A stretch of 64,000 nucleotides of DNA from Candidatus Sumerlaeota bacterium. Its GTDB lineage: Bacteria; Sumerlaeota; Sumerlaeia; JADFCW01. This document shows, piece after piece, positions 752 through 55,684 of this stretch. The notes under the pieces are model-generated. The model saw only the letters and a list, made by a program, of their open reading frames with translations, made no database searches and was not told the DNA's origin. The position numbers and the translations under genes were made by a program. Each line of letters begins with the position of its first letter. The first letter of the stretch is position 1. The stretch covers positions 4,528 through 68,527 of the forward strand of contig JADFCW010000002.1 in NCBI GenBank assembly GCA_017161705.1. The letters are read 5' to 3'.

Positions 752-1030
752 CGCGGCAGCTAACGTGGCTTTTGGCCACAACCAAACAGATCTTCGCAAG
801 ATGGCCAGGTCTCAAGATGAAAGATTCGAAGGCGGCCGGAAAAGTCAGGGCAATCGTTTGTTTTGCAGGGAACGAATACTGCAAAAGCGGCAGCCATGCT
901 GCCGCTTTTGCCCGACAATTTTCGACGCACCAACCGTTGCCTGTGGCTACAACCCAACACGAGATGCGCAACAAAGACGCCTGCATTTTGGCCAGACCTT
1001 TAAACGAAAGAATCTAACGTGTGAACTCCA
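752..1030. repeat. Dispersed ~300 bp intergenic repeat element, copy 1 (shorter variant with a single hairpin)
   Basis: Shares conserved blocks with 8830-9135 and 22228-22530: AACGTGGCYTTYGGCYAYAACCAAA.AGAT, TCTCAAGAT.GAAA..GGCGGCCG.AAAA, GCGGCAGCCATGCTGCCGCTTTTGCCCGACAA and AACGAAAGAATCTAA. Confidence 0.7.
887..909. terminator. Bidirectional intrinsic-terminator-like hairpin (8 bp GC stem GCGGCAGC/GCTGCCGC, 3 nt loop, A-tract before and T-tract after)
   Basis: Palindrome CAAAAGCGGCAGCCATGCTGCCGCTTTTG read directly from the sequence, 136 bp after the stop of the permease-like gene. Confidence 0.5.
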
Positions 1031-1082
1031 TTCGCCACACGGATGTTCGAGAAACTAACGATAACATTTCAGGAGACCCGCC

Positions 1083-2954
1083 ATGACAAACGTGCGACTC
1101 GCAAGTCTTGCCACCATGCTTCCTTTCCTCGTCGCCGTCACGCTCACCGTTTCCGCGCCGCTGGCCCTCGCCGCCGACTGGCGCAATCTCAACAACGGCC
1201 TGCGTATTCCCAGTGAATCCGGCTACGCCGACCAGCCCTACATCGTGGTCACGCGCGACGGCAACTGGCTTTGCGTTCTGACCACCGGCAAAGGCCGCGA
1301 GGGACAGCCCGGCCAGCATGTGGTGTCCACCATCAGCACCGACAAAGGCCGCACATGGTCGCCGCTCGTGGACATCGAGCCAGCCGACGGCCCGGAGGCC
1401 TCGTGGGTCATCCCGCTGGTCATTCCAAGCGGCCGCGTCTATGCGTTCTACGACTACAATGGCGACAACGTTCACACGCTCGGCGCCAAGAAGAACATCC
1501 GCGCTGACATGCTTGGTTGGTATGTCTTCAAATACTCCGACGACAACGGCCGCACGTGGTCGAAAGAGCGCTATCGCCTGCCCGTCCGGGTCACCGCGTG
1601 CGACCGCGCCAACGACTGGCAGGGTGCCGTTCAAATTTTCTGGGGAATTGACAAGCCCAAGATCATCGGCGACTCGGTCTATTTTGCTTTCACCAAACTC
1701 GGCAAATACATCCTCGACAACGGCGAGGGCTGGCTGTTCCGCTCCGACAATATCCTCACCGAACGCGACCCCGCGAAGATTCGCTGGGAGATGCTGCCCC
1801 AAGGCGATCACGGCATTCGCGCGCCCGAGTTCGGCTCGGTGCAGGAGGAACACAACATGGTTCCGCTTTCCGGCGGTTCGCTCTATTGCGTTTATCGCAC
1901 CACAACGGGGCGCCCGTGCCACAGCTACAGCCGCGACGGCGGCCGCACCTGGAGCGTGCCCGAATATATGACCTACACGCCGGGCGGAAAGAAGATCAAG
2001 AATCCGCGGGCCTGTCCCAAACTTTGGCGCACCTCCAACGGCAAGTATCTTTTCTGGTTTCACAACAACGGCAGCCAGGGATTCAATCAGGGCGACGCGG
2101 CCGGCTCGCGAAATGTGGCGTGGCTCGCCGGCGGCATCGAAAAAGATGGCCTGATGTATTGGTCGCAGCCGGAGATCGTCCTGTATGCGCCCAACTATCT
2201 CCAAGGCCCCAGCTACCCCGATCTCATCGAGCAGGACGGCCGGTTCTGGATTTCCGAAACCCAGAAAACCGTCGCCCGCGTCCATGAAATTGACCGCTCG
2301 CTGATCGAGGGATTGTGGAGTCAGAGCGATAACCGCACGGTCGCAAAGGACGGCCTTGTGTTGGAGGCGAACGGCCGGGACCTACAATCGGGCAAGTTCA
2401 ATATGCCGCCGCTGCCGGACTTGGCCGCCGGCGGCGGCTTCACCGTCGAACTGAGCGCGGTCTTCCGCGATCTGTCGCCCGGCCAAGCCATTCTCGAAAG
2501 CCGCGGCAAGGACGGGAAAGGATTCTCGCTGGCCGCGGATACCTCCGAGACGGTGCGTTTCGAGTTCAGCGACGGAAAAACACGCGCGGCCTGGAACAGC
2601 GATCCAGGCCTGCTGGCGTCGCGTTCCCGCATGTTGCGCAATGCGTCGGCCCATCATGTCGTTGTCATCGTGGACGGCGGCCCGAAGGTTATTATGTTTG
2701 TCATTGACGGCGTTCTGTGCGACGGCGGCGACGATCCCAACCGCAAATACGGCTGGGGCCGCTTTCACCAGACTTTTTACACAAGCGCGCAAAGCGACGA
2801 AATCAAAAAGCAGGGCGAGGAAATCGGCATAGTCTCGGACGGGACGGCCGTTGCCGCAATCAATCCGCAGGCCGCCGACATCCAACTTCTTCGCATCTAC
2901 GCGCGCGCCTTGCGTGTCTCCGAAGCCGTAGCCAACAGTCGCGCGAACCGGTAA
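1083..2954 (+). CDS. Secreted BNR/Asp-box repeat glycoside hydrolase (sialidase-like) with C-terminal ConA/LamG-like domain
   Basis: Signal peptide, then three Asp-boxes (STDKGRTWS, SDDNGRTWS, SRDGGRTWS). A GGAG RBS sits upstream of the ATG. The C-terminal ~200 aa are jelly-roll-like. Confidence 0.8.
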   Translation: MTNVRLASLATMLPFLVAVTLTVSAPLALAADWRNLNNGLRIPSESGYADQPYIVVTRDGNWLCVLTTGKGREGQPGQHVVSTISTDKGRTWSPLVDIEPADGPEASWVIPLVIPSGRVYAFYDYNGDNVHTLGAKKNIRADMLGWYVFKYSDDNGRTWSKERYRLPVRVTACDRANDWQGAVQIFWGIDKPKIIGDSVYFAFTKLGKYILDNGEGWLFRSDNILTERDPAKIRWEMLPQGDHGIRAPEFGSVQEEHNMVPLSGGSLYCVYRTTTGRPCHSYSRDGGRTWSVPEYMTYTPGGKKIKNPRACPKLWRTSNGKYLFWFHNNGSQGFNQGDAAGSRNVAWLAGGIEKDGLMYWSQPEIVLYAPNYLQGPSYPDLIEQDGRFWISETQKTVARVHEIDRSLIEGLWSQSDNRTVAKDGLVLEANGRDLQSGKFNMPPLPDLAAGGGFTVELSAVFRDLSPGQAILESRGKDGKGFSLAADTSETVRFEFSDGKTRAAWNSDPGLLASRSRMLRNASAHHVVVIVDGGPKVIMFVIDGVLCDGGDDPNRKYGWGRFHQTFYTSAQSDEIKKQGEEIGIVSDGTAVAAINPQAADIQLLRIYARALRVSEAVANSRANR

Positions 2955-8608: not shown

Positions 8609-8967
8609 GGGAGAAACCTTTCTGGGTGTAGTATTGGACAAACGTCCGAGCTGTTGCCGTTTCCCGTCTTTACGTTTTTCTTTCCACAGCCGGTAGGATG
8701 CTAAAGTTTGCCAATGACAGGCAGTCAAGCAAGAAATCGCTGTGCAACTCTCCGCAGGCGATGCACTGTTCTGATTCCTGCCTCCCATATCGTTATTGCA
8801 ATTTACCGAGCGTCTGACCTATCCTTGTTCTTGGATAGATCCTCCTAACGTGGCCTTCGGCTATAACCAAAAAGATTTTCGCCAGAGAGCTAGATCTCAA
8901 GATTGAAAAAGGGCGGCCGTAAAAACCAGGCCGATAGGTTGTCATGCGATGAAGCGTTACAGAAAAA

Positions 8968-8986
8968 GCGGCAGCAGGGCTGCCGC
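8968..8986 (-). terminator. Terminator-like hairpin 1 of repeat copy 2 (GCGGCAGC-AGG-GCTGCCGC), T-tract on the minus strand
   Basis: Perfect 8 bp GC stem preceded by AAAAA on the plus strand, which reads TTTTT after the hairpin on the minus strand. Confidence 0.45.
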
Positions 8987-9039
8987 TCTCCAAAGATTTT
9001 GCTCTGATCCGGCAAAGCAGAATGCTTTTGCTTTGGACT

Positions 9040-9062
9040 GCGGCAGCCATGCCGCCGCTTTT
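9040..9062 (+). terminator. Terminator-like hairpin 2 of repeat copy 2 followed by TTTTGCCCGACAA
   Basis: GCGGCAGC-CAT-GCCGCCGC stem with one mismatch, followed by TTTT. Confidence 0.45.
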
Positions 9063-9217
9063 GCCCGACAAGCTTCGACGCACCCAACGTAGCCCGGAGA
9101 TCTAACCCGACACTTGGGATGTTCTAGAAAGATGCACACAGTTGGGCTCGATCTTTTGCCAAAAAAGTATATACGCAATTGCCTTTCCATTCAAGTCAAA
9201 ACCAAGGAGGCCCTTCC

Positions 9218-10854: not shown

Positions 10855-11113
10855 GCCCGCGCCCTCTCAGCGCCAAATCGCTTTGCGTTCAAGACAAGTT
10901 CCACGGCAGCGCCCTTGCATCAACCAATCCTTGAGTCGGCCCGTCCGCTCGACGTAATCATCGTTTCGATCAGGAAGACGGGAACACACGGCCATGCCAA
11001 AGGTTCCGAAGAGAATTCTCGTATGACACCTGACAGTGGCGATCTGCTTCGAAGCGCAAAACCGCGAATCCGCGCGGCGATAGCTCTCATCGCTCTCCCG
11101 CCGCCATAGTGCC

Positions 11114-13188: not shown

Positions 13189-14407
<1,219 letters not shown>

Positions 14408-14502
14408 TTCGCCGCGACACAGCGATCGAAAGAAGGGTTTTCATCTCCCTCAATCGCGATGCGGGAAACCGCCCCGCTGGCTTTCTGAAAAACGCAGCAC
14501 AC

Positions 14503-14599
14503 GAAAGTGTGAACGACATGCAACCCAGTGAAGATTGAATTACCAACAGCACACTAAAGTGTGAACTACAAACGGCAAACTGAAGTTTGAACTACGAGC
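14503..14599 (-). repeat. Inverted copies (about 2 units) of the GTAGTTCA/CTTCAG repeat
   Basis: The reverse complement reads GCTCGTAGTTCAAACTTCAGTTTGCCGTTTGTAGTTCACACTTTAGTGTG..., nearly identical to the tandem unit at 53570-53673. Confidence 0.65.
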
Positions 14600-14620
14600 T
14601 TATTCCATTCGTCTGCCAAG

Positions 14621-15742
14621 CTACAGAATCAACATCGCGTCGCCGTAGCTGTAAAAACGATAGCCCGAAGCGATCGCCTCTGCATAGGCCCGCAGCACCG
14701 GCTTGCAGCCGGCAAAGGCACAAACCAGAAGCAGCAGGGACGATCTGGGCAAGTGAAAGTTGGTCACCAGCGCATCGGCCAGCCGAAACGAGTATCCCGG
14801 CGCGATTAACAACTGCGTTGTGCCGCTGCCGGCCGCCGGAAGTCCGTCGGCATCGCAGGCCGACTCCAGCACCCGCACAGAAGTGGTGCCGACGGGGATA
14901 ATCCGCCGGCCTTCGCTGCGGGCGCGGCGGATCCGCGCGGCCTCTTCCGAAGCAATGTTGTAGGCCTCTTCGTGAAGCCGGCCCGTCGCCAGGTGCTCCT
15001 CGGTCAGCGGCTGAAAGGTGCCGGGCCCGACGTGAAGCGTCACGCGGGCAAATTCGATACCGCGCGACTCGAGGTCGCGCAGCAAAGTTTCGGTAAAGTG
15101 CAAACCGGCGGTCGGGGCGGCCACCGAGCCGGGCTGTGCCGCATAGACGGTCTGATAGCGCACGCGGTCGTCGGGCGTGTCTTCCGGTGCTTCGCGGGCT
15201 TGTTTGCGGGCCTTGAGAATATAAGGCGGAAGCGGCGTGTGGCCGTAGTGCTCCAGAAGCGTCTGCCAGTCGGTGCCGCGGGTGTCGAACTCGATGATGC
15301 GCTCGCCCTTGCCCGCATAGCCGACAACTTGCGCGTCGAACTGGCCGGGGGCAATGACGAGACGGTCGCCCGTGTGCACTTTCTTTCCGGGGTGAACCAG
15401 CGCGCGCCAACGATGGACGGCCGGGTGGCCGGAATGGTCGGTCGAACCGTTTGCAGCAGAAGGGCCGCACCCGCCGATCGCAGGCGAAACCAGAAAGATT
15501 TCCACTTTGCCACCGCCCGGCAGGCGATGGGCATAAAGCCGCGCGGGGATCACCCGGCTGTCGTTGAGCACCAGCAGGTCGCCCGCGCGGAGAAACTCGC
15601 CGATGTCGCGAAATTGCCGATGGTAAATGGCGCCGGTCGCGCGGTCGAGCACCAGCAGGCGCGACTCATCGCGGCGTTCGGCCGGATGCCGCGCAATGCG
15701 GTCAGGCGGAAGATCGTAGGAGCAAACTATTGAGTTTATCAT
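14621..15742 (-). CDS. queA: S-adenosylmethionine:tRNA ribosyltransferase-isomerase
   Basis: Start trimmed to MINSIV...DLPPDRIARHP. The protein is collinear with QueA (LLVLD..., HVGPGTF, LPRS). Confidence 0.9.
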   Translation of the reverse strand: MINSIVCSYDLPPDRIARHPAERRDESRLLVLDRATGAIYHRQFRDIGEFLRAGDLLVLNDSRVIPARLYAHRLPGGGKVEIFLVSPAIGGCGPSAANGSTDHSGHPAVHRWRALVHPGKKVHTGDRLVIAPGQFDAQVVGYAGKGERIIEFDTRGTDWQTLLEHYGHTPLPPYILKARKQAREAPEDTPDDRVRYQTVYAAQPGSVAAPTAGLHFTETLLRDLESRGIEFARVTLHVGPGTFQPLTEEHLATGRLHEEAYNIASEEAARIRRARSEGRRIIPVGTTSVRVLESACDADGLPAAGSGTTQLLIAPGYSFRLADALVTNFHLPRSSLLLLVCAFAGCKPVLRAYAEAIASGYRFYSYGDAMLIL

Positions 15743-15848
15743 GCACAGGCGCGGCGCAGTCAAGATGACTCGAGCGTGGCGAATTGAGAAAGAGTTGTCA
15801 ATCGAGTCCGGATGACCAGCCCTTCTTTCACCCGGACTGTATTTTCGC

Positions 15849-22126: not shown

Positions 22127-22329
22127 GGCGGACCGTAAATGGGCAATTAACGCCGGAAATTCGCAACGCGAAAGCGCATGCGCATCCCGCTTGACTTTGA
22201 GTGAATTGCCGCCTGCTATCTTTTGCGTAACCCGCTTTGCCAGAGGGCTAGATCTCAAAATTGAAAAATTCCAAGGCGGCCGTAAAAGCTAGGGCAATAG
22301 GTTGTCTTGCGATGACCCCATATAGCAAA

Positions 22330-22348
22330 GCGGCAGCATGGCTGCCGC
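22330..22348. terminator. Hairpin 1 of repeat copy 3 (GCGGCAGC-ATG-GCTGCCGC)
   Basis: Perfect 8 bp GC stem. Confidence 0.4.
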
Positions 22349-22401
22349 ACTCCAAAACTTTTGGCCTGATCCGGCAAGGCGAAATGCTTCTGCTTTGGAC
22401 T

Positions 22402-22424
22402 GCGGCAGCCGTGCTGCCGCTTTT
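22402..22424 (+). terminator. Hairpin 2 of repeat copy 3 (GCGGCAGC-CGT-GCTGCCGC) followed by TTTTGCCCGACAA
   Basis: Perfect stem plus T-tract, 280 bp after the cytochrome stop and 175 bp before the PhoD-like start. Confidence 0.5.
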
Positions 22425-22597
22425 GCCCGACAAGTTCCGACGCACCGAACGTAGCCCAGAGATCTAACCCGACATGGGATGTTCTAGAAAGATGCACGCA
22501 TTTGGGCTAAATCTATAAGCGAAAGAATCTAAAAGCCATTTGCATCAAAAAAAGCCCGGAGCACCGCCAGTCTTATTTTGATGAAAGGAGCATTGTC

Positions 22598-32200: not shown

Positions 32201-33177
32201 ATTTTCATTGCGCCGAAGAGATTCAACGCTTGCAGACCAAAAACCTGGAGCGCGCGCGCGACGAGGAGACGTTGCGCAAGATTGCCGCGCTACAGCCGGT
32301 CGCTCCGCCCCCGCATGACCGCCAAGCGGTCGCGCGGATTTTCGAGCGCCTGACCTGGCAGTATGCCGCACGGCCGCTGACGCGCATTCGCGGAAAAATG
32401 TCGGTGTCCGAAATCAAACGGCGGTTCGAGACCGGGCGCGAAAGCGACGAGGCATTGAACGGGTGGGGCAGACAGGCAATAGCCCGCCGACCGGCGTTCA
32501 TGGCTGCGGGAACCGGCACGGCGCCCGTACTAACGGCCTCCGAGATTGGCACGGCCACACATACAGTGTTGCGCCATTTGGACCTATCGCAGCCGCCCGA
32601 CGAGGCAACGGTGCGCAGCCAGATAGCGCAGATTGCGGCGGAGGGAAAGCTCGCTGCCGCCGAGGCGGCGTGCGTGGATGCAGCAGCCATCGCCCGGTTT
32701 CTCCAGTCGCCGATAGGAACAGAAATTCGCGGAGCGCCCCATCGCGTGCAGCGCGAGATGCCGTTCAGCCTGGCGGTGCCGGCGGCCGAGATTGCGCGGC
32801 TGGAGAGGAGGCTGTCCAGCGAAATCAAGTCTAACGGGTCGGACGGGTCAGATGAGTCGGACAGGTCAGACAGCTCGGACCCCTCAGACAAATCCGATAG
32901 GATTTTTTGCAACGAGTGGGTCCACGTCCAGGGGATCGTGGACTGCTTGTTCGAGCGGCCGGAGGGGTTTGTGCTGTTGGACTTCAAGACCGACCGCGTC
33001 GAACGAGACACGGCCGAAACACGCGCCGCATTTTACCGTCCACAAATGGAGTTTTATGCCCGCGCGGTGGAAACGATTTTCCGCCGGCCTGTGGTCGAGC
33101 AAGTGCTTTACTTTCTTTCCTGCGGTGTGGCAGTGTCCATGCCTCCGAGGGACGGAGAGCGGTTTGGGAGATTTTAG
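29212..33177 (+). CDS. AddA-like UvrD-family helicase fused to a C-terminal PD-(D/E)xK nuclease
   Basis: Walker A AASAGTGKTAVL, UvrD helicase motifs, C-terminal nuclease motif GIVDCLFE...LLDFKTD. Acidic inserts and a DGSDESDRSDSSDPSDKSD low-complexity repeat. No addB-like gene is adjacent. Confidence 0.8.
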   Translation: MGKEPMSWTAAQRRAIETRGADLLVAASAGTGKTAVLVERCIRLVTDPIAPIDLDRLLVVTFTEAAAAEMRNRIGEALHRQIAQHPADARLRRQLMLLDRAMISTLHSFAFRIIQEHFFRLGLDPNLAVLDPDEALLLRHETLDDVFEALYTSESETGQRFVRLIERYGKDGDDAPVRSAVLNLWEFLRSLPRPEQWKRQVLDSYPKPDEAPPPFERLRRWYEPFVAALRENMLQIESDLRAAAQWVYDADPSTRGYTQFFRDVADEMAKLRATLQTNGYDAFHEAIGKWEYPKLRTNPAVADDFMQQVRARNDKIREAKKTLFKNWCVLSGAQWAETLRATRADVEMMFELVERFDAAFARVKRERGEVDFGDLERFCFDLLCDKAASEGDRYAPSEVARKELRDRFEAVLVDEYQDINPLQDAIIRLCARENDPQRPPNLFMVGDVKQSIYRFRLAEPKLFLQRLAAFRSEGGAGIGQRIDLSENHRSRPGLLAAINALCSRIMSPEVGGIVYDSAAELRGGFDFPKESSGDIPPPVTGLPVEVHFFDRAREETISESETTAESTEVDEEEPRDGSEAGALAGAAVPPDELEEIEIEAHWVARRIRAMLSGEFSVWDRGEGRYRPVARRDIAVLLQTAAYKAALFVRILQAHGIPAYTDIPPGKLQPAEIRDLFALLELLDNPCQDIPLAAVLRSPLVRLSEDDLARIRIHRRESSFFSAARAYCESGPEEPLRRRLGEFFDRLDRWRTLARRGPLARALWAIYDETGYLDYVTAMDGGAQRRANLIGLYDRARQFDEFRRRGLARFIQFVRQLQETENQLATPPAVSEADDVVRVMSIHKSKGLEFPVVFLPDIGKNFNFQNTREDVVTDRDLGVALRAVVPRRKIKYPTVAHAVASRQVKREILAENIRLLYVALTRAREKLVLCGSVKLDKALQAWRQCAVAGNDGRIALSPGVLASARSFSDWIGPALARLGCLGDPAHQPPPSDTLFAVHFHCAEEIQRLQTKNLERARDEETLRKIAALQPVAPPPHDRQAVARIFERLTWQYAARPLTRIRGKMSVSEIKRRFETGRESDEALNGWGRQAIARRPAFMAAGTGTAPVLTASEIGTATHTVLRHLDLSQPPDEATVRSQIAQIAAEGKLAAAEAACVDAAAIARFLQSPIGTEIRGAPHRVQREMPFSLAVPAAEIARLERRLSSEIKSNGSDGSDESDRSDSSDPSDKSDRIFCNEWVHVQGIVDCLFERPEGFVLLDFKTDRVERDTAETRAAFYRPQMEFYARAVETIFRRPVVEQVLYFLSCGVAVSMPPRDGERFGRF
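32848..32885 (+). repeat. Hexamer (TCGGAC/TCAGAC) tandem array inside the addA-like coding sequence, left arm of an inverted pair
   Basis: GTCAGATGAGTCGGACAGGTCAGACAGCTCGGAC encodes the Ser-Asp repeat. Confidence 0.6.
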
Positions 33178-33202: not shown

Positions 33203-33240
33203 CAAAGTCCGACCTGTCCGACTTGTCCGACTCGTCTGAC
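33203..33240 (-). repeat. Right arm of the inverted hexamer-array pair (GTCCGAC x3 to x4) in the addA-larA-like spacer
   Basis: The reverse complement GTCAGACGAGTCGGACAAGTCGGACAGGTCGGAC is about 85% identical to 32848-32885. Confidence 0.6.
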
Positions 33241-50375: not shown

Positions 50376-50430
50376 TTCTAACTTCACATGTCAGCAGGTT
50401 GTTTGTAGTTTCGGCTTCAGCAGGGCCGTT
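50376..50430 (+). repeat. Degenerate solo unit of the GTAGTTCA/CTTCAG repeat
   Basis: AGTTCTAACTTCACATGTCAGCAGGTTGTTTGTAGTTTCGGCTTCAGCAGG is roughly 70% identical to the 52 bp unit. Confidence 0.4.
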
Positions 50431-51213: not shown

Positions 51214-51433
51214 ACCTCATTCCCCCTTTGTCTGTATAGAAAACGTTTCGTTTTGAAAATCCGTTGCCCTCGCGCAACCGTGAAACATTTATCACGGCAG
51301 TCCTATCACGTGGCAGCTGCCTTCTTTTTACCTAACCAATCAGCGATTTCGCGCTTGACTTGCATCCGGCCTGTTCTCAGCTTACAATGCAGCAAGATAA
51401 AAGCACGCAACGCTCATGAAAGGAACAGTGGGG

Positions 51434-53494
51434 ATGAAAAGCAAGAACATTCTGGCATTCTTGCTTCTGGCAACCGCCGCATCGGCCGCGGAGTATCATG
51501 TCTCGGTCAATGGCAGCGACAAGAACGACGGCTCGGCGGGCAGGCCGTTTCGAACGATTTCCGCCGCCGCCCATGTGGCGCAGCCTGGTGACGTGATCAC
51601 CGTGCACGAAGGTACCTATCGAGAGCGCGTCGCTCCGCCGCGCGGCGGCGCGTCGGACGACAGACGGATCGTTTATCAAGCGGCGCCGGGCGAGAAGGTC
51701 GAGATCAAAGGCTCGGAAGTCGTCAAAAACTGGGTCAAGGTCCAGGCCGACGTCTGGAAGGTGACGCTGCCCAATGCGTTCTTTGGAAAATTCAATCCCT
51801 ACAGCGACCTCATCCGCGGCGACTGGTTCAACGCCAAAGGCCGCGAGCATCACACCGGCGCGGTATATCTCAACGGCGAGTGGCTGATCGAGGCAGCCAA
51901 GCTGGACGAGGTTCTGAAACCGATGCCGGACAAGCCTGACGCGCCGCTCTGGTTCGCTCATGTGGACAAGGAGAACACCACCATCTGGGCCCAATTCAAG
52001 GGCGTCAATCCCAACGAGCATCTGGTCGAGATCAATGTGCGGCAGACTGTCTTCTATCCGGAAAAACCGGGAATTAACTACATCACCGTGCGCGGCTTTA
52101 CGATGCGCCATGCAGCCACGCCCTGGGCGCCGCCGACGGCCGAACAAATCGGCCTCATCGGCACGCATTGGAGCAAGGGCTGGGTCATCGAGAACAACGT
52201 CATCAGCCACTCGATTTGCTCGGGAATCGCCCTCGGAAAGCACGGCGACGAATTCGACAACACCTCGGCCAACACCGCCGAGGGCTACGTCAAGACCATC
52301 GAGCGAGCCCATGCCTTTTCCATCCCGTGGACCAAGGAGAACATCGGCCATCACCTCGTCCGCAACAACGTCATCTCGCACTGCGAACAGGCGGGCATCG
52401 TCGGCAGTCTCGGCGCCATTTTCAGCACGATTACCGACAACCACATCCACACCATTTGGGCCAGGCGCCTTTTCACCGGCGCCGAGATGGCCGGCATCAA
52501 ACTCCACGCCGCTATTGACGTGCTGATCAAAGGCAACCGAATCCACAACGCCGGACGCGGTCTGTGGATGGACTGGATGGCCCAGGGAACGCGCATTACG
52601 CAAAACTTGCTTTACGACAACACGACCGATGACCTGTTTGTCGAGGTGAACCACGGGCCGTTTCTGGTGGACAACAACATCTTCCTTTCGCCGATCAGCC
52701 TTAACGACATGTCCGAAGGCGGCGCCTACGCGCACAACCTTTTCGCCGGACGCATCCTGAGCCGACCCGAACTTCGACGCGACACGCCGTATCATCCAGC
52801 CCACTCGACCCTCGTCGCCGGTCTCGTCAACACCAAAGGAGGCGACAACCGCTTTTACAACAATATCTTCATCGGCCGAGCGAACGGAAAAACCGCGGAG
52901 TACGGTCTGGCCAGCTACGACCCGCGCGAGTTCCCGCTGTACACCGGCGGCAATGTCTATTACGGGAACGCCCGCCCCTATGCAAAGGAGAGCGATGCCG
53001 TGGTGGTCTCTGATGTCGAACCCAACCCTGAAGTGGTCGAGAAGGGCGAGCGCGTTGCGCTTCGATTGACCCTGGGAACATCTCCCCAAAAAGCAGCAGC
53101 AGCGCTCGTGACCACGGAAAAACTGGGCAAGGCCCGAATCCCCGGTCTCCCCTACGAAAATCCCGACGGTTCGCCCGTGCGCATTGACACCGATTACTTT
53201 GGGAAGAAACGCAACGAAACCAGACCTTCGCCCGGCCCCTTTGAAGCCCCCGCCGAAGGACGGCTCGAACTCAAGGTTTGGGAGGAAAAATCCGGACTCT
53301 TGCGCCAGAAGGGAGATTCGGAAAAGAAACGACGCGGCTTCTTCACGGCACCGGCTCTCGGAGCGGCCACAGCGGCTTCGACGGGCGGCTCAGTGGGAGC
53401 GGTCACCAAGCCGGCTCAGGGTCGCCTCACTGTTGCCAGCGTATTGGCAATTTGGGTTTCGAAAGATCAACGAATGGCTCTTCAAATCGGATAA
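51434..53494 (+). CDS. Secreted right-handed parallel beta-helix protein (pectate-lyase-like / DUF1565 type)
   Basis: Signal peptide, N-terminal YHVSVNGSDKNDGSAGRPFRTISAAAHVAQPGDVITVHEGTY, and repeated NNVIS beta-helix rungs. Confidence 0.7.
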   Translation: MKSKNILAFLLLATAASAAEYHVSVNGSDKNDGSAGRPFRTISAAAHVAQPGDVITVHEGTYRERVAPPRGGASDDRRIVYQAAPGEKVEIKGSEVVKNWVKVQADVWKVTLPNAFFGKFNPYSDLIRGDWFNAKGREHHTGAVYLNGEWLIEAAKLDEVLKPMPDKPDAPLWFAHVDKENTTIWAQFKGVNPNEHLVEINVRQTVFYPEKPGINYITVRGFTMRHAATPWAPPTAEQIGLIGTHWSKGWVIENNVISHSICSGIALGKHGDEFDNTSANTAEGYVKTIERAHAFSIPWTKENIGHHLVRNNVISHCEQAGIVGSLGAIFSTITDNHIHTIWARRLFTGAEMAGIKLHAAIDVLIKGNRIHNAGRGLWMDWMAQGTRITQNLLYDNTTDDLFVEVNHGPFLVDNNIFLSPISLNDMSEGGAYAHNLFAGRILSRPELRRDTPYHPAHSTLVAGLVNTKGGDNRFYNNIFIGRANGKTAEYGLASYDPREFPLYTGGNVYYGNARPYAKESDAVVVSDVEPNPEVVEKGERVALRLTLGTSPQKAAAALVTTEKLGKARIPGLPYENPDGSPVRIDTDYFGKKRNETRPSPGPFEAPAEGRLELKVWEEKSGLLRQKGDSEKKRRGFFTAPALGAATAASTGGSVGAVTKPAQGRLTVASVLAIWVSKDQRMALQIG

Positions 53495-53519
53495 GATGGA
53501 AGCCCAGTTCATACTGCCC

Positions 53520-53694
53520 GTAGCGAACTTCAGTTTGCCGTTCGTAGTTCACGCTTCAGCGTGTTGTATGTAGTTCAAACTTCAGTTTGCCGTTCGTAGT
53601 TCACGCTTCAGCGTGTTGTATGTAGTTCAAACTTTAGTTTGCCGCTCGTAGTTCACGCTTCAGCGTGTTGTATGTAGTTCAAACTTCAGTTTGC
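53520..53694 (+). repeat. Tandem array: 52 bp unit x about 3.4, each unit made of two 26 bp half-units
   Basis: GTAGTTCAAACTTCAGTTTGCCGTTCGTAGTTCACGCTTCAGCGTGTTGTAT repeated with 1-3 substitutions per copy. Not CRISPR, because no unique spacers separate the units. Confidence 0.85.
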
Positions 53695-53914
53695 TGGATC
53701 ATTCCCCACTTTAGCAGGGCTTCTATCTCGCGGCCGGCACAACAATATTGCCCCGCCAAAGCACAGGGGACATTCATCAAATTAAGGTTCGAACTCCAAG
53801 CGGGCGAATCTCAATATCCATAAAGTGCGGCTTGAAGCTCTGCCAAGAGTTGCTTTCACTAAAACGAAGGACAACCAGAACCAATTACCAAGAATTCCCT
53901 TAGGAGGAAGAACC

Positions 53915-55684
53915 ATGGAACGACGCAGCTTTCTGAAGACCGCCGGCCTGGCCGCCGGCGCGGTGTGGACCTTTCCTGCATCATTCCACGCCGCCCCAGC
54001 GCAAAAACCCAACATCATCATCATTATGTCCGACGACATGGGCTTTTCGGACATCGGCTGCTACGGCAGCGAAATCCAAACCCCCGCTCTCGACAGCCTC
54101 GCTGCCAACGGCGTGCGCTTTACGCAGTTTTACAACACCGCCCGCTGCTGCCCCACCCGCGCATCCCTGCTCACAGGCCTCTATCCCCACCAGGCCGCCG
54201 TCGGCCACATGATGGAAGACCGGAATCTCGACGGCTATCAGGGCGACCTTAGCCGCAACGCCGTCACCATTGCCGAGGTGCTCAAGTCTGCCGGCTACGG
54301 CACCTATGCGGTCGGCAAATGGCACGTCACCCGCTTTGCCGGCCCCGAGGGCCCCAAACACAACTGGCCGTTGCAGCGCGGCTTCGATCGCTACTACGGC
54401 ACGATCACCGGCGCCGGCAGCTTTTATGATCCGGGAACGCTCACGCGCGACAACACGATGATCTCGCCCTTTGCCGATCCGGAGTATAAGCCCAAGGTCT
54501 TTTATTACACCGACGCGATCAGCGATCACGCCGTCCGGCTCATCCAAGAGCACCGCGAGCGAACGCCCGACAAACCCTTCTTTATGTATGTGTCCTATAC
54601 CACCGCCCACTGGCCTATGCACGCGCTCGAAGAGGACATCGCCAAGTACAAGGGCAAATACGACGGCGGTTATGAACCGATCCGCCGCGCACGGTTCGAG
54701 CGCCTCAAGCAGATGGGCTTGATTGACCCCAAATGGGAACTATCGCCACAGGCGGGCAACTGGGATGAGGTCCTGAACAAGCCGTGGGAAGCCCGGTGCA
54801 TGGAAGTCTATGCCGCCATGATTGACCGAATGGACCAGGGCATCGGGCGCATCGTCGCCGAACTCAAGCGACTGAACCAGCTGGACAATACGCTGATTCT
54901 CTTTCTCGAGGACAACGGCGGCTGCGCCGAAAACACCGGTCGCAACGGCAATATGACCCGCCCCGCACAACCGACCCTGCCGCCGATTCCGCTCGATGCC
55001 ATCCGCCTCGAGGTCATTCCCAAACAGACCCGCGAAGGCTTCCCCATTATCCAGGGACAGGGCGTGATGCCCGGCCCTCCGGATACGTATATCGCCTACG
55101 GGCAAGGCTGGGCCAATGTGTCCAACACGCCGTTCCGCGAATACAAGCATTTTGTCCACGAGGGCGGAATTGCCACGCCGCTGATCGCGCACTGGCCGGC
55201 GGGCATCCGGCGCAAAGGCGAACTCGAACATCAACCGAGCCATGTGATTGATCTCATGGCAACGTGCGTGGACGTTGCGGGCGCAAAGTATCCCGCCGAA
55301 TTTGCGGGCAACAAAATCACCCCGCTCGAAGGCCGCAGTCTTCTTCCCGCCTTCCACGGCAAGCCCGTCGAGCGCGAGGCGATCTTTTGGGAGCACGAGG
55401 GCAATCGCGCCATCCGAATGGGCCGATGGAAACTGGTGGCCAAGAATCCGGGTGGACCGTGGGAACTCTATGATGTGGAAAACGACCGCACCGAAATGCA
55501 CGACCTGGCGGCGAAAGAGCCCGAGCGCCTGAAGGCCATGGTCGCCCAATGGGAAGCCTACGCCCGACGCACCAAAGCCCTCCCGTGGCCGTGGAAACCC
55601 GAATACGGCCAGCCGGCGGGGACTGCGGCGGGCGAGAAAAAGGCCGGCAAAAAGGCCGCCGGCAAAAAGAAGACAACCAAATAG
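53915..55684 (+). CDS. Sulfatase (formylglycine-dependent), Tat signal
   Basis: AGGAGG RBS. RRSFLKTAGLAAGA. IIIMSDDMGFSD. CCPTRASLLTGL. Confidence 0.85.
   Translation: MERRSFLKTAGLAAGAVWTFPASFHAAPAQKPNIIIIMSDDMGFSDIGCYGSEIQTPALDSLAANGVRFTQFYNTARCCPTRASLLTGLYPHQAAVGHMMEDRNLDGYQGDLSRNAVTIAEVLKSAGYGTYAVGKWHVTRFAGPEGPKHNWPLQRGFDRYYGTITGAGSFYDPGTLTRDNTMISPFADPEYKPKVFYYTDAISDHAVRLIQEHRERTPDKPFFMYVSYTTAHWPMHALEEDIAKYKGKYDGGYEPIRRARFERLKQMGLIDPKWELSPQAGNWDEVLNKPWEARCMEVYAAMIDRMDQGIGRIVAELKRLNQLDNTLILFLEDNGGCAENTGRNGNMTRPAQPTLPPIPLDAIRLEVIPKQTREGFPIIQGQGVMPGPPDTYIAYGQGWANVSNTPFREYKHFVHEGGIATPLIAHWPAGIRRKGELEHQPSHVIDLMATCVDVAGAKYPAEFAGNKITPLEGRSLLPAFHGKPVEREAIFWEHEGNRAIRMGRWKLVAKNPGGPWELYDVENDRTEMHDLAAKEPERLKAMVAQWEAYARRTKALPWPWKPEYGQPAGTAAGEKKAGKKAAGKKKTTK

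Follow-up and report, generated by a model that had tools for sequence, protein, structure and literature searches.

A tandem array beside a sulfatase gene in a Candidatus Sumerlaeota genome is probably a cluster of GTAG-tagged REP elements allied to a clade of REP-associated tyrosine transposases

A 64,000-nt stretch of contig JADFCW010000002.1 from a Candidatus Sumerlaeota bacterium, referred to here as the window, contains a tandem array in the spacer between a gene encoding a secreted beta-helix protein and a gene encoding a sulfatase. The array starts 25 nt past the stop of the upstream open reading frame (ORF), which ends at 53494, and is separated by 221 nt from the sulfatase ATG at 53915, which is preceded by GGAGG; an earlier sequence-only reading of this DNA had given the same distances (25 bp and about 220 bp). 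Read directly, the array consists of seven 26-nt units, all on the + strand, arranged head-to-tail across 53520-53693. Tandem Repeats Finder reports it at 53526-53694 with a period of 52, 3.2 copies, and 97% matches, and also at a period of 26 with 6.5 copies and 65% matches. The 52-bp tandem array that the sequence-only reading had placed at 53520-53694 is real, and its description as a run of near-perfect tandem copies holds (3.4 copies in that reading, 3.2 in the assembled sequence by Tandem Repeats Finder). The sequence GTAGTTCANNCTTCAG, allowing for up to 2 mismatches, has 11 matches in the window compared with 0.11 expected from shuffled sequences, which is beyond chance. The GC content of the array is 0.45, versus 0.60 for the window.

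Each 52-nt copy is made up, as had been proposed, of two related 26-bp halves, type A (GTAGTTCAAACTTCAGTTTGCCGTTC) and type B (GTAGTTCACGCTTCAGCGTGTTGTAT), which alternate along the array and match at 18/26 positions (69%). The three B units show no differences between copies, and the 52-nt copies match each other at 50/52, 48/52, and 47/52 positions (90-96% identity), compared with only 69% between A and B; the A-B pair has thus been amplified locally and recently. A covariance model of the unit (R1) recovered the array units with scores of 27-43 bits and E values of 1e-10 to 6e-6.

The consensus of the 26-nt unit is GTWY-GTAG-TT-CANNC-TTYA-GNNTG-YY, which comprises a GTAG tag, an unpaired TT, and a hairpin with a 5-bp stem and a 4-nt loop. 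Units in the window have in common the sequence GTAGTTCA, followed by the hairpin and then by TG. Their stems differ from each other by compensatory changes (CAAAC/GTTTG, CACGC/GCGTG, and CACAC/GTGTG), whereas the tag, the loop, and the ends of the stem are fixed; the GTAG tag is altered only in decayed units at 14543 (GTAA) and 14517 (GTCG). The same behavior was seen on a much larger scale when the pattern GTAGTTCANNCTTYAGNNTG was scanned against one genome per species (596 Gb), which returned at least 115 loci. The two middle stem pairs, which were left free in the pattern, were both complementary in 150 of the 181 matches listed, compared with 1/16 expected by chance, and at least nine different pair combinations occurred. 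Positions outside the pattern were conserved as well: among 136 distinct units, G (90%), T (75%), W (96%), and Y (93%) precede GTAG, and Y (87%) follows the stem. A stem that covaries while the loop and tag stay fixed is the signature of a hairpin rather than of a double-stranded operator.

The window contains three or four sites with 12-13 units in total, as judged by the covariance model, and every copy is intergenic (Table 1). The recurrence of the unit elsewhere in the window, which had already been remarked on from the sequence, is accounted for by a second, older cluster on the - strand in the spacer between queA and tgt, an inverted single unit on the + strand in the same spacer, and a weak relic on the + strand. 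The stems of the four units in the second cluster read CAAAC/GTTTG, CACAC/GTGTG, one degenerate stem, and CACAC/GTGTG accompanied by the GTCG tag. The inverted unit is preceded by a degenerate one at 14361-14382. REP-type units fill about 156 of the 301 nt of this spacer (14320-14620), namely, 14492-14601 and 14361-14406.

Table 1. Repeat units, clusters, and flanking genes in the 64-kb window
Feature	Position	Strand	Evidence or remark
Repetitive extragenic palindrome (REP) cluster (probable), 7 units, equal to 3.2 copies of a 52-nt A-B heterodimer	53520..53693	+	In the spacer that separates the GH120-like beta-helix gene from the sulfatase gene
Unit 1, A-type, degenerate, GTAGCGAACTTCAGTTTGCCGTTC	53520..53543	+	24 nt (2 short); stem CGAAC/GTTTG with one G.T pair
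Unit 2, B-type, GTAG TT CACGC TTCA GCGTG TTGTAT	53544..53569	+	Pattern match, direct reading, covariance model
Unit 3, A-type, GTAG TT CAAAC TTCA GTTTG CCGTTC	53570..53595	+	Covariance model, 43.1 bits
Unit 4, B-type, same sequence as unit 2	53596..53621	+	Pattern match, direct reading, unit comparison
Unit 5, A-type, loop TTTA, tail CCGCTC	53622..53647	+	Covariance model, 42.2 bits
Unit 6, B-type, same sequence as unit 2	53648..53673	+	Pattern match, direct reading, unit comparison
Unit 7, A-type core; unique sequence (CTGGAT...) in place of the tail	53674..53693	+	Covariance model, 41.1 bits
Possible hairpin-less remnant of a further unit, CCAGTTCATACTGCC, uncertain	53505..53519	+	By eye; missed by the covariance model
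Second cluster, older, in the queA-tgt spacer; four units arranged head-to-tail	14492..14601	-	Covariance model matches of 43.7, 23.9, and 19 bits
Single B-type unit, GTAGTTCACGCTTCAGCGCG, inverted relative to the second cluster	14377..14406	+	Covariance model, 28.7 bits, E 2e-6
Possible decayed unit, weak, GTTTGTAGTTTCGGCTTCAGCAGG, intergenic	50399..50422	+	2 mismatches; covariance model, 13 bits, E 0.07
Upstream gene, secreted right-handed beta-helix protein with GH120 insertion domain	51416..53494	+	Pfam PF21258, E 3e-31; Beta_helix; DUF1565
Downstream gene, sulfatase	53915..55684	+	Pfam PF00884, E 1e-60
queA, upstream of the second cluster	14621..15763	-	Pfam PF02547, E 4e-122
tgt, downstream of the second cluster	13189..14319	-	Pfam PF01702, E 2e-158; start at 14319 set by typical Tgt N termini

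Outside the window, several hundred chance singletons are estimated for a 16-position pattern in 596 Gb, so that single matches mean little. Many genomes with multiple loci were found, in Lentisphaeria, Kiritimatiellia, KSB1, Hydrogenedentota, Sumerlaeota, a metagenome-assembled genome (MAG) labelled Deferribacteres, a Coleofasciculaceae cyanobacterium, and others; the core is also present in Acidobacteriota genomes, and 14 of its 20 positions are conserved across several phyla. A crude ORF call places about 132 units in intergenic DNA versus 14 inside ORFs. Between tandem genes, 49 units are sense and 35 antisense; a further 31 lie between convergent genes, and 17 lie between divergent genes. 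Clustering of the ORFs within 1.5 kb of the motif at 115 loci identified no recurrent neighboring protein family. Inverted doublets, with a few nucleotides between the two units, are the form seen in most phyla. Direct head-to-tail arrays occur in Lentisphaeria, Sumerlaeia, and some Phycisphaerae and extend to about 800 nt in one Lentisphaeria locus (L042). Among 144 pairs of close neighbors (305 units), 76 are head-to-tail, 44 of them spaced at exactly 26 nt, and the remaining pairs have their GTAG tags facing outward (43) or inward (25).

Some of these loci carry more elaborate structures. The Lentisphaeria MAG SBF912LR0HQ0165 has long head-to-tail arrays of 0.4-1 kb (2443-3238 of L042, 3871-4275 of L078, and 3324-4334 of L007), in which the GTAGTTCA unit is mixed with GTAGTACAGGCTTTAGCCTG (26 nt) and with the 21-nt GTACCTCGCTTGCAGGAGCAT, the latter giving a 47-nt period; these arrays occur in either orientation relative to the flanking genes. 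In Kiritimatiellae, positions 520-660 of L111 and the homologous sites in L002, L023, L049, and L083 hold a back-to-back motif pair within a near-perfect palindrome of about 110 nt (GCAGCAATTCTAATTATG ... CATAATTAGAATTGCTGC), and such composite elements lie on either side of small gene cassettes, one of which is a toxin-antitoxin-like pair.

Several of the features described above are those of REPs, namely, a short unit (20-40 bp; 26 nt in the present case) that forms a stem-loop, an extragenic location, and an unpaired 5' GT[AG]G tag. REPs also have many dispersed copies per genome; several loci per genome were seen in other genomes, and the window has its three or four sites. The tag is of this form in the window, whereas some units in other genomes carry GGAG, which falls outside GT[AG]G. 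REP-RAYT systems are defined by a REP-associated tyrosine transposase (RAYT) gene flanked by units, an arrangement termed a REPtron (PMC3733652; PMC6006769), and the motif family was found to share it in other genomes. By seeking ORFs between inverted copies of the motif, a 206-amino-acid (aa) ORF with HYH and YIHHNP motifs was located at 812-1432 (-) of locus L059, with units on both sides. Its product matches the NCBIfam model NF047646 (REP_Tyr_transpos, REP-associated tyrosine transposase) with an E value of 2e-22 and 79.6 bits, marginally below the cutoff of 80, and Pfam Y1_Tnp with 22.7 bits, marginally below the curated cutoff of 23. The best match among solved structures is Escherichia coli TnpA-REP (4ER8; E value of 9e-7), with the HUH and Tyr motifs aligned. 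The protein has 835 homologues at E<=1e-5; almost all of the best 120 of these are about 200 aa long, mostly with 48-57% identity, and those named among them come from BRC1/Sumerlaeota, KSB1, Acidobacteria/Blastocatellia, and others. The consensus of this clade is NHYH ... W ... YiHhNPV over 201 aa, with an N-terminal PWHsPPH motif.

The association was tested independently with five more homologues that were picked by protein similarity alone, after which their contigs were inspected for units. All five genes, from BRC1 SM23_51 (L116), KSB1 (L118), Acidobacteria (L121), an 8.8-Mb genome (L122), and Sumerlaeia (L203), have G[T/G]AGTTCA-hairpin units on both sides, with covariance model scores of 27-46 bits. 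The units lie within about 110 nt of the gene ends in four of the five cases. In L122 the distance rises to about 175 nt at most, with 143 nt between the end of the closest upstream unit (1829-1858) and the start of the gene at 2001. Together with L059, a gene encoding a RAYT with the HUH and Y...NP motifs is therefore flanked by units at 6/6 RAYT loci, all in other genomes. In Acidobacteria (L121 and L120), the RAYT gene and its flanking units have been inserted between the hsdM and hsdS genes of a type I restriction-modification operon.

The distribution of the units among related sequences is patchy. Two related Sumerlaeota-like genomes, with QueA proteins 72% and 69% identical to that in the window, contained no unit in 41.7 kb. 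The nearest QueA homologues with an organism name are 50-63% identical and come almost without exception from Candidatus Sumerlaeota. Locus L205 has the queA-tgt-rubredoxin synteny in common with the window, but its queA-tgt spacer is only 37 nt long (11066-11102) and lacks REPs, compared with 301 nt holding the REP cluster and the inverted unit in the window; REP material makes up much of this difference in length but not all. The motif was likewise absent from 80 metagenome loci (578 kb) that code for homologues of the protein encoded upstream of the array, and none of these loci is syntenic with the sulfatase gene. This patchiness indicates that the family has been both gained and lost, as expected for REPs, and that it is not a conserved regulatory feature of the sulfatase locus or of the queA-tgt locus. 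Viral contigs yielded eight singleton matches to the motif, which were taken as background, and hence gave no sign of phage carriage.

Taken together, the array is very likely a cluster of GTAG-tagged REPs linked with a RAYT clade similar to subclass 2.8. GTAG-tagged REPs, REPtrons, an unpaired dinucleotide between tag and stem, and 5-bp stems have all been described (Di Nocera, De Gregorio & Rocco 2013, PMC3733652). The GTAG-1 and GTAG-2 REPs in that study are, like the array, extragenic and built of short palindromes that carry GTAG unpaired at the 5' side, separated from the stem by an unpaired dinucleotide, and stems in Thauera REPs go down to 5 bp. Their subtypes likewise arise by complementary stem changes, they form heterodimers and clusters of reiterated dimers, and, as in the motif family, they are located mainly downstream of genes and flank RAYT genes. 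The specific motif GTAGTTCA...TTYA...TG does not appear in the text or supplements of PMC3733652, and a literature search for GTAGTTCA produced nothing but primers. Most REP families are lineage specific; in this one, by contrast, several phyla have the loop and the stem base in common. The very short stem, the conservation across phyla together with a RAYT clade, and the dominance of 26-nt head-to-tail arrays make the family mildly unusual.

RAYT subclass 2.8 is characterized by NHYH, W[YH], and YIHYNP motifs, a length of about 199 aa, a proline-rich N terminus, and flanking GT[AG]G REPs, and closely related sequences of this subclass occur in unrelated phyla (Quentin, Siguier, Chandler & Fichant 2018, PMC6006769). 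The clade described here is likened to it by motif signatures alone (NHYH / W / YiHhNPV, 201 aa, and PWHsPPH). E. coli TnpA-REP (4ER8; PMC3479197) is, like members of the clade, an HUH/Y1 enzyme whose gene is flanked by cognate GTAG-tagged hairpins, but the clade is a different subclass, marked by its NHYH and YIHHNP motifs, its length of about 200 aa, and its N-terminal PWHsPPH motif. E. coli REP clusters resemble the array in occupying intergenic regions of operons, although their stems are much longer and are bulged, compared with 5 bp in the window. REPINs, which Bertels and Rainey reportedly described in Pseudomonas as REP doublets that form hairpins and proposed as the mobilized unit, have a counterpart in the inverted doublets of most other phyla and in the palindrome of about 110 nt in Kiritimatiellae; the units in the window and in Lentisphaeria are, in contrast, direct repeats.

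From the analogy with E. coli TnpA-REP and the IS200/IS605 enzymes, we infer that a RAYT would bind the hairpin in single-stranded DNA, read the GTAG tag, cut nearby, and seed new intergenic copies; a RAYT is the protein most likely to recognize the units of the array. Replication slippage or unequal recombination would then probably have expanded the directly repeated A-B pair, in the recent past, to about 3.5 copies. With co-oriented genes on both sides, the array is probably transcribed, in which case its hairpins may shield the upstream transcript from 3' exonucleases or may attenuate read-through into the sulfatase gene. By comparison with other REPs, a role as an exonuclease barrier or as a partial attenuator of read-through is plausible. 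Protection of mRNA and attenuation of read-through are known as side effects of REPs elsewhere rather than as dedicated regulatory devices.

Several observations count against assigning the array to a REP-RAYT system. No RAYT gene was found in the 64-kb window using a motif regular expression, tblastn, or a hidden Markov model (HMM) of the clade, and a cognate RAYT in the source organism is for this reason only assumed. The regular expression was overly strict, since it also missed the RAYT of L059, which came from the ORF search; the clade HMM found no RAYT in the first 115 loci. At 5 bp, the stem is short for a REP, and it shows no obvious fit to the "long canonical" REPs ascribed to subclass 2.8 (PMC6006769), for which the GGAG tag of some units in other genomes is also a departure from GT[AG]G. 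Head-to-tail dimers are absent or underrepresented according to PMC3733652 but are the commonest pair arrangement here (76/144). The bacterial interspersed mosaic elements (BIMEs) of E. coli alternate in REP orientation, whereas the window array is strictly direct. The two window arrays also happen to run in the sense direction of the genes around them, as would suit an RNA element. Finally, transposition of REPs driven by a RAYT has, to our knowledge, never been shown by experiment.

A number of other repeat classes were considered and set aside. The array is not a classical BIME, as its seven units, spaced at 26 nt, all face the same way (+ strand) instead of alternating in orientation. Like CRISPR arrays, it consists of short, partly palindromic direct repeats in tandem; the sequence-only reading was nevertheless right to exclude that class, since the units abut at 26 nt without spacers, cas genes play no part, and the repeat also occurs at dispersed sites. 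The defining sequences and architectures of integron attC sites, IS91 ends, and iterons do not fit.

A variant of the REP-RAYT interpretation holds that the phased head-to-tail arrays represent a distinct mode of RAYT-driven proliferation, in which each unit would carry its own target or cleavage site (GTWY on the 5' side and YY on the 3' side). New units would then be set down directly beside existing ones, unlike in the mobilization of inverted REPIN doublets, and the arrays of about 800 nt in Lentisphaeria might have gained a host function. In Sumerlaeota, the A and B hairpin subtypes are kept as a pair. We consider this mode of growth unlikely, though if it is true, RAYT-driven accretion would open a tractable way into the spread of REPs, a problem that is still unsolved.

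The alternative raised by the sequence-only reading was an array of binding sites for a regulator or nucleoid protein, or a promoter spacer of variable repeat number that tunes sulfatase expression. The regular phasing, with 26 bp corresponding to 2.5 helical turns and 52 bp to 5 turns, and the position of the array 221 nt upstream of the sulfatase start would agree with operator-like sites. However, the core recurs in unrelated intergenic regions of many genomes without a recurrent neighbor gene, the units are mostly located downstream of genes or between convergent genes, the stem covaries with loop and tag fixed, and the motif flanks RAYT genes. Furthermore, no sigma-70-like promoter is predicted in 53300-54000, and none of the 80 homologous loci keeps the beta-helix/sulfatase pair or has the motif. 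We therefore regard a regulatory array as very unlikely. The suggestion of protein recognition sites is plausible in general form; neither a regulator array specific to this locus nor a promoter spacer is supported, in view of the dispersed core, the covarying stem, the 6/6 RAYT loci, and the absence from related genomes. The REP clusters of E. coli bind IHF, gyrase, and Pol I, and secondary protein binding at the array is accordingly conceivable.

Even less probable is a functional structured RNA, either a cis element of the 3' untranslated region or intercistronic region or a multihairpin RNA that titrates an RNA-binding protein. It could draw on the sense orientation of both window arrays and on unit 1, which retains pairing through a G.T pair. 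The array also folds far better than its shuffled versions (z = -5.6 as RNA and z = -4.0 as DNA), and the B hairpins, with a T-rich tail after each, are predicted as weak terminator-like sites. Across genomes, however, units and arrays occur in both orientations and are antisense to both neighbors in L007, L071, and L001. In a hand count of the noncomplementary scan matches, G.T (5) and A.C (6) stem mismatches were about equally frequent, which indicates that neither strand is favored. Rfam 15 at gathering thresholds gave no family match apart from tRNAs for the window and 13 related loci, and the RAYT association accounts for the conservation that an RNA would otherwise be called on to explain. 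The best subthreshold Rfam match was to the Transposase-2 RNA (RF03015) at 53621-53661 (-), with 13.9 bits versus a gathering threshold of 42.7 and an E value of 3.5, and the 5' consensus of RF03015, GAAGCGcGAAc, corresponds to a portion of the B unit in reverse complement. This match was taken as chance, and the REPtron loci of other genomes are likewise without an RF03015 match.

The least probable explanation is an assembly artefact affecting the array or its copy number: the source is apparently a MAG contig, and 175 nt of tandem repeats approach short-read lengths, but the copies can be told apart by substitutions, a second, diverged cluster is present in the same window, and equivalent arrays with 26-nt phasing occur in independent assemblies from several phyla, so that the array as such, if not its exact copy number, is unlikely to be artefactual.

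The gene upstream of the array had been described as encoding a beta-helix lyase-like protein. The beta-helix fold is borne out, but the product contains a GH120 insertion domain (PF21258; E value of 3e-31) and is thus glycoside hydrolase-like, and its identity as a lyase is not demonstrated. It has hundreds of homologues with 61-75% identity in freshwater and sediment metagenomes. The window also contains repeats that are unrelated to the array. An intergenic repeat of about 280 nt is present at 8878-9154 and 22236-22514 (85% identity over 282 nt), with partial copies at 760-1001. It includes two inverted hairpin units, TTTGGA(G/C)T-GCGGCAGC-CATG-CTGCCGC-TTTTG, about 55 nt apart, followed by the conserved sequence GCCCGACAAGYTYCGACGCACC, and it resembles a REPIN-like doublet of another family, in which the tag is GGAG and the stem is GC rich and 8 bp long. 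Two arrays of 9-nt repeats, ACGGGTCGG (5.2 copies at 32834-32880) and GTCCGACTT (3.8 copies at 33207-33240), are found about 330 nt apart and are apparently mutually inverted.

The interpretation as a REP cluster replaces a candidate "mystery regulatory array" with a recognizable class of element, a fairly ordinary feature in an understudied phylum. For the local genes, the hairpins may have an effect on mRNA stability or read-through, and a dedicated control system is not indicated. We know of essentially no descriptions of REPs in Sumerlaeota, Lentisphaerota, Kiritimatiellota, KSB1, Hydrogenedentota, Acidobacteriota, and some Cyanobacteria, and the covariance model and consensus allow the elements to be masked or annotated in these groups. 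The pairing of a small, poorly studied RAYT clade, with 48-57% identity across phyla, with a very short and unusually conserved REP would be convenient material for testing RAYT recognition biochemically, and the unusual dominance of head-to-tail arrays bears on how REP clusters grow.

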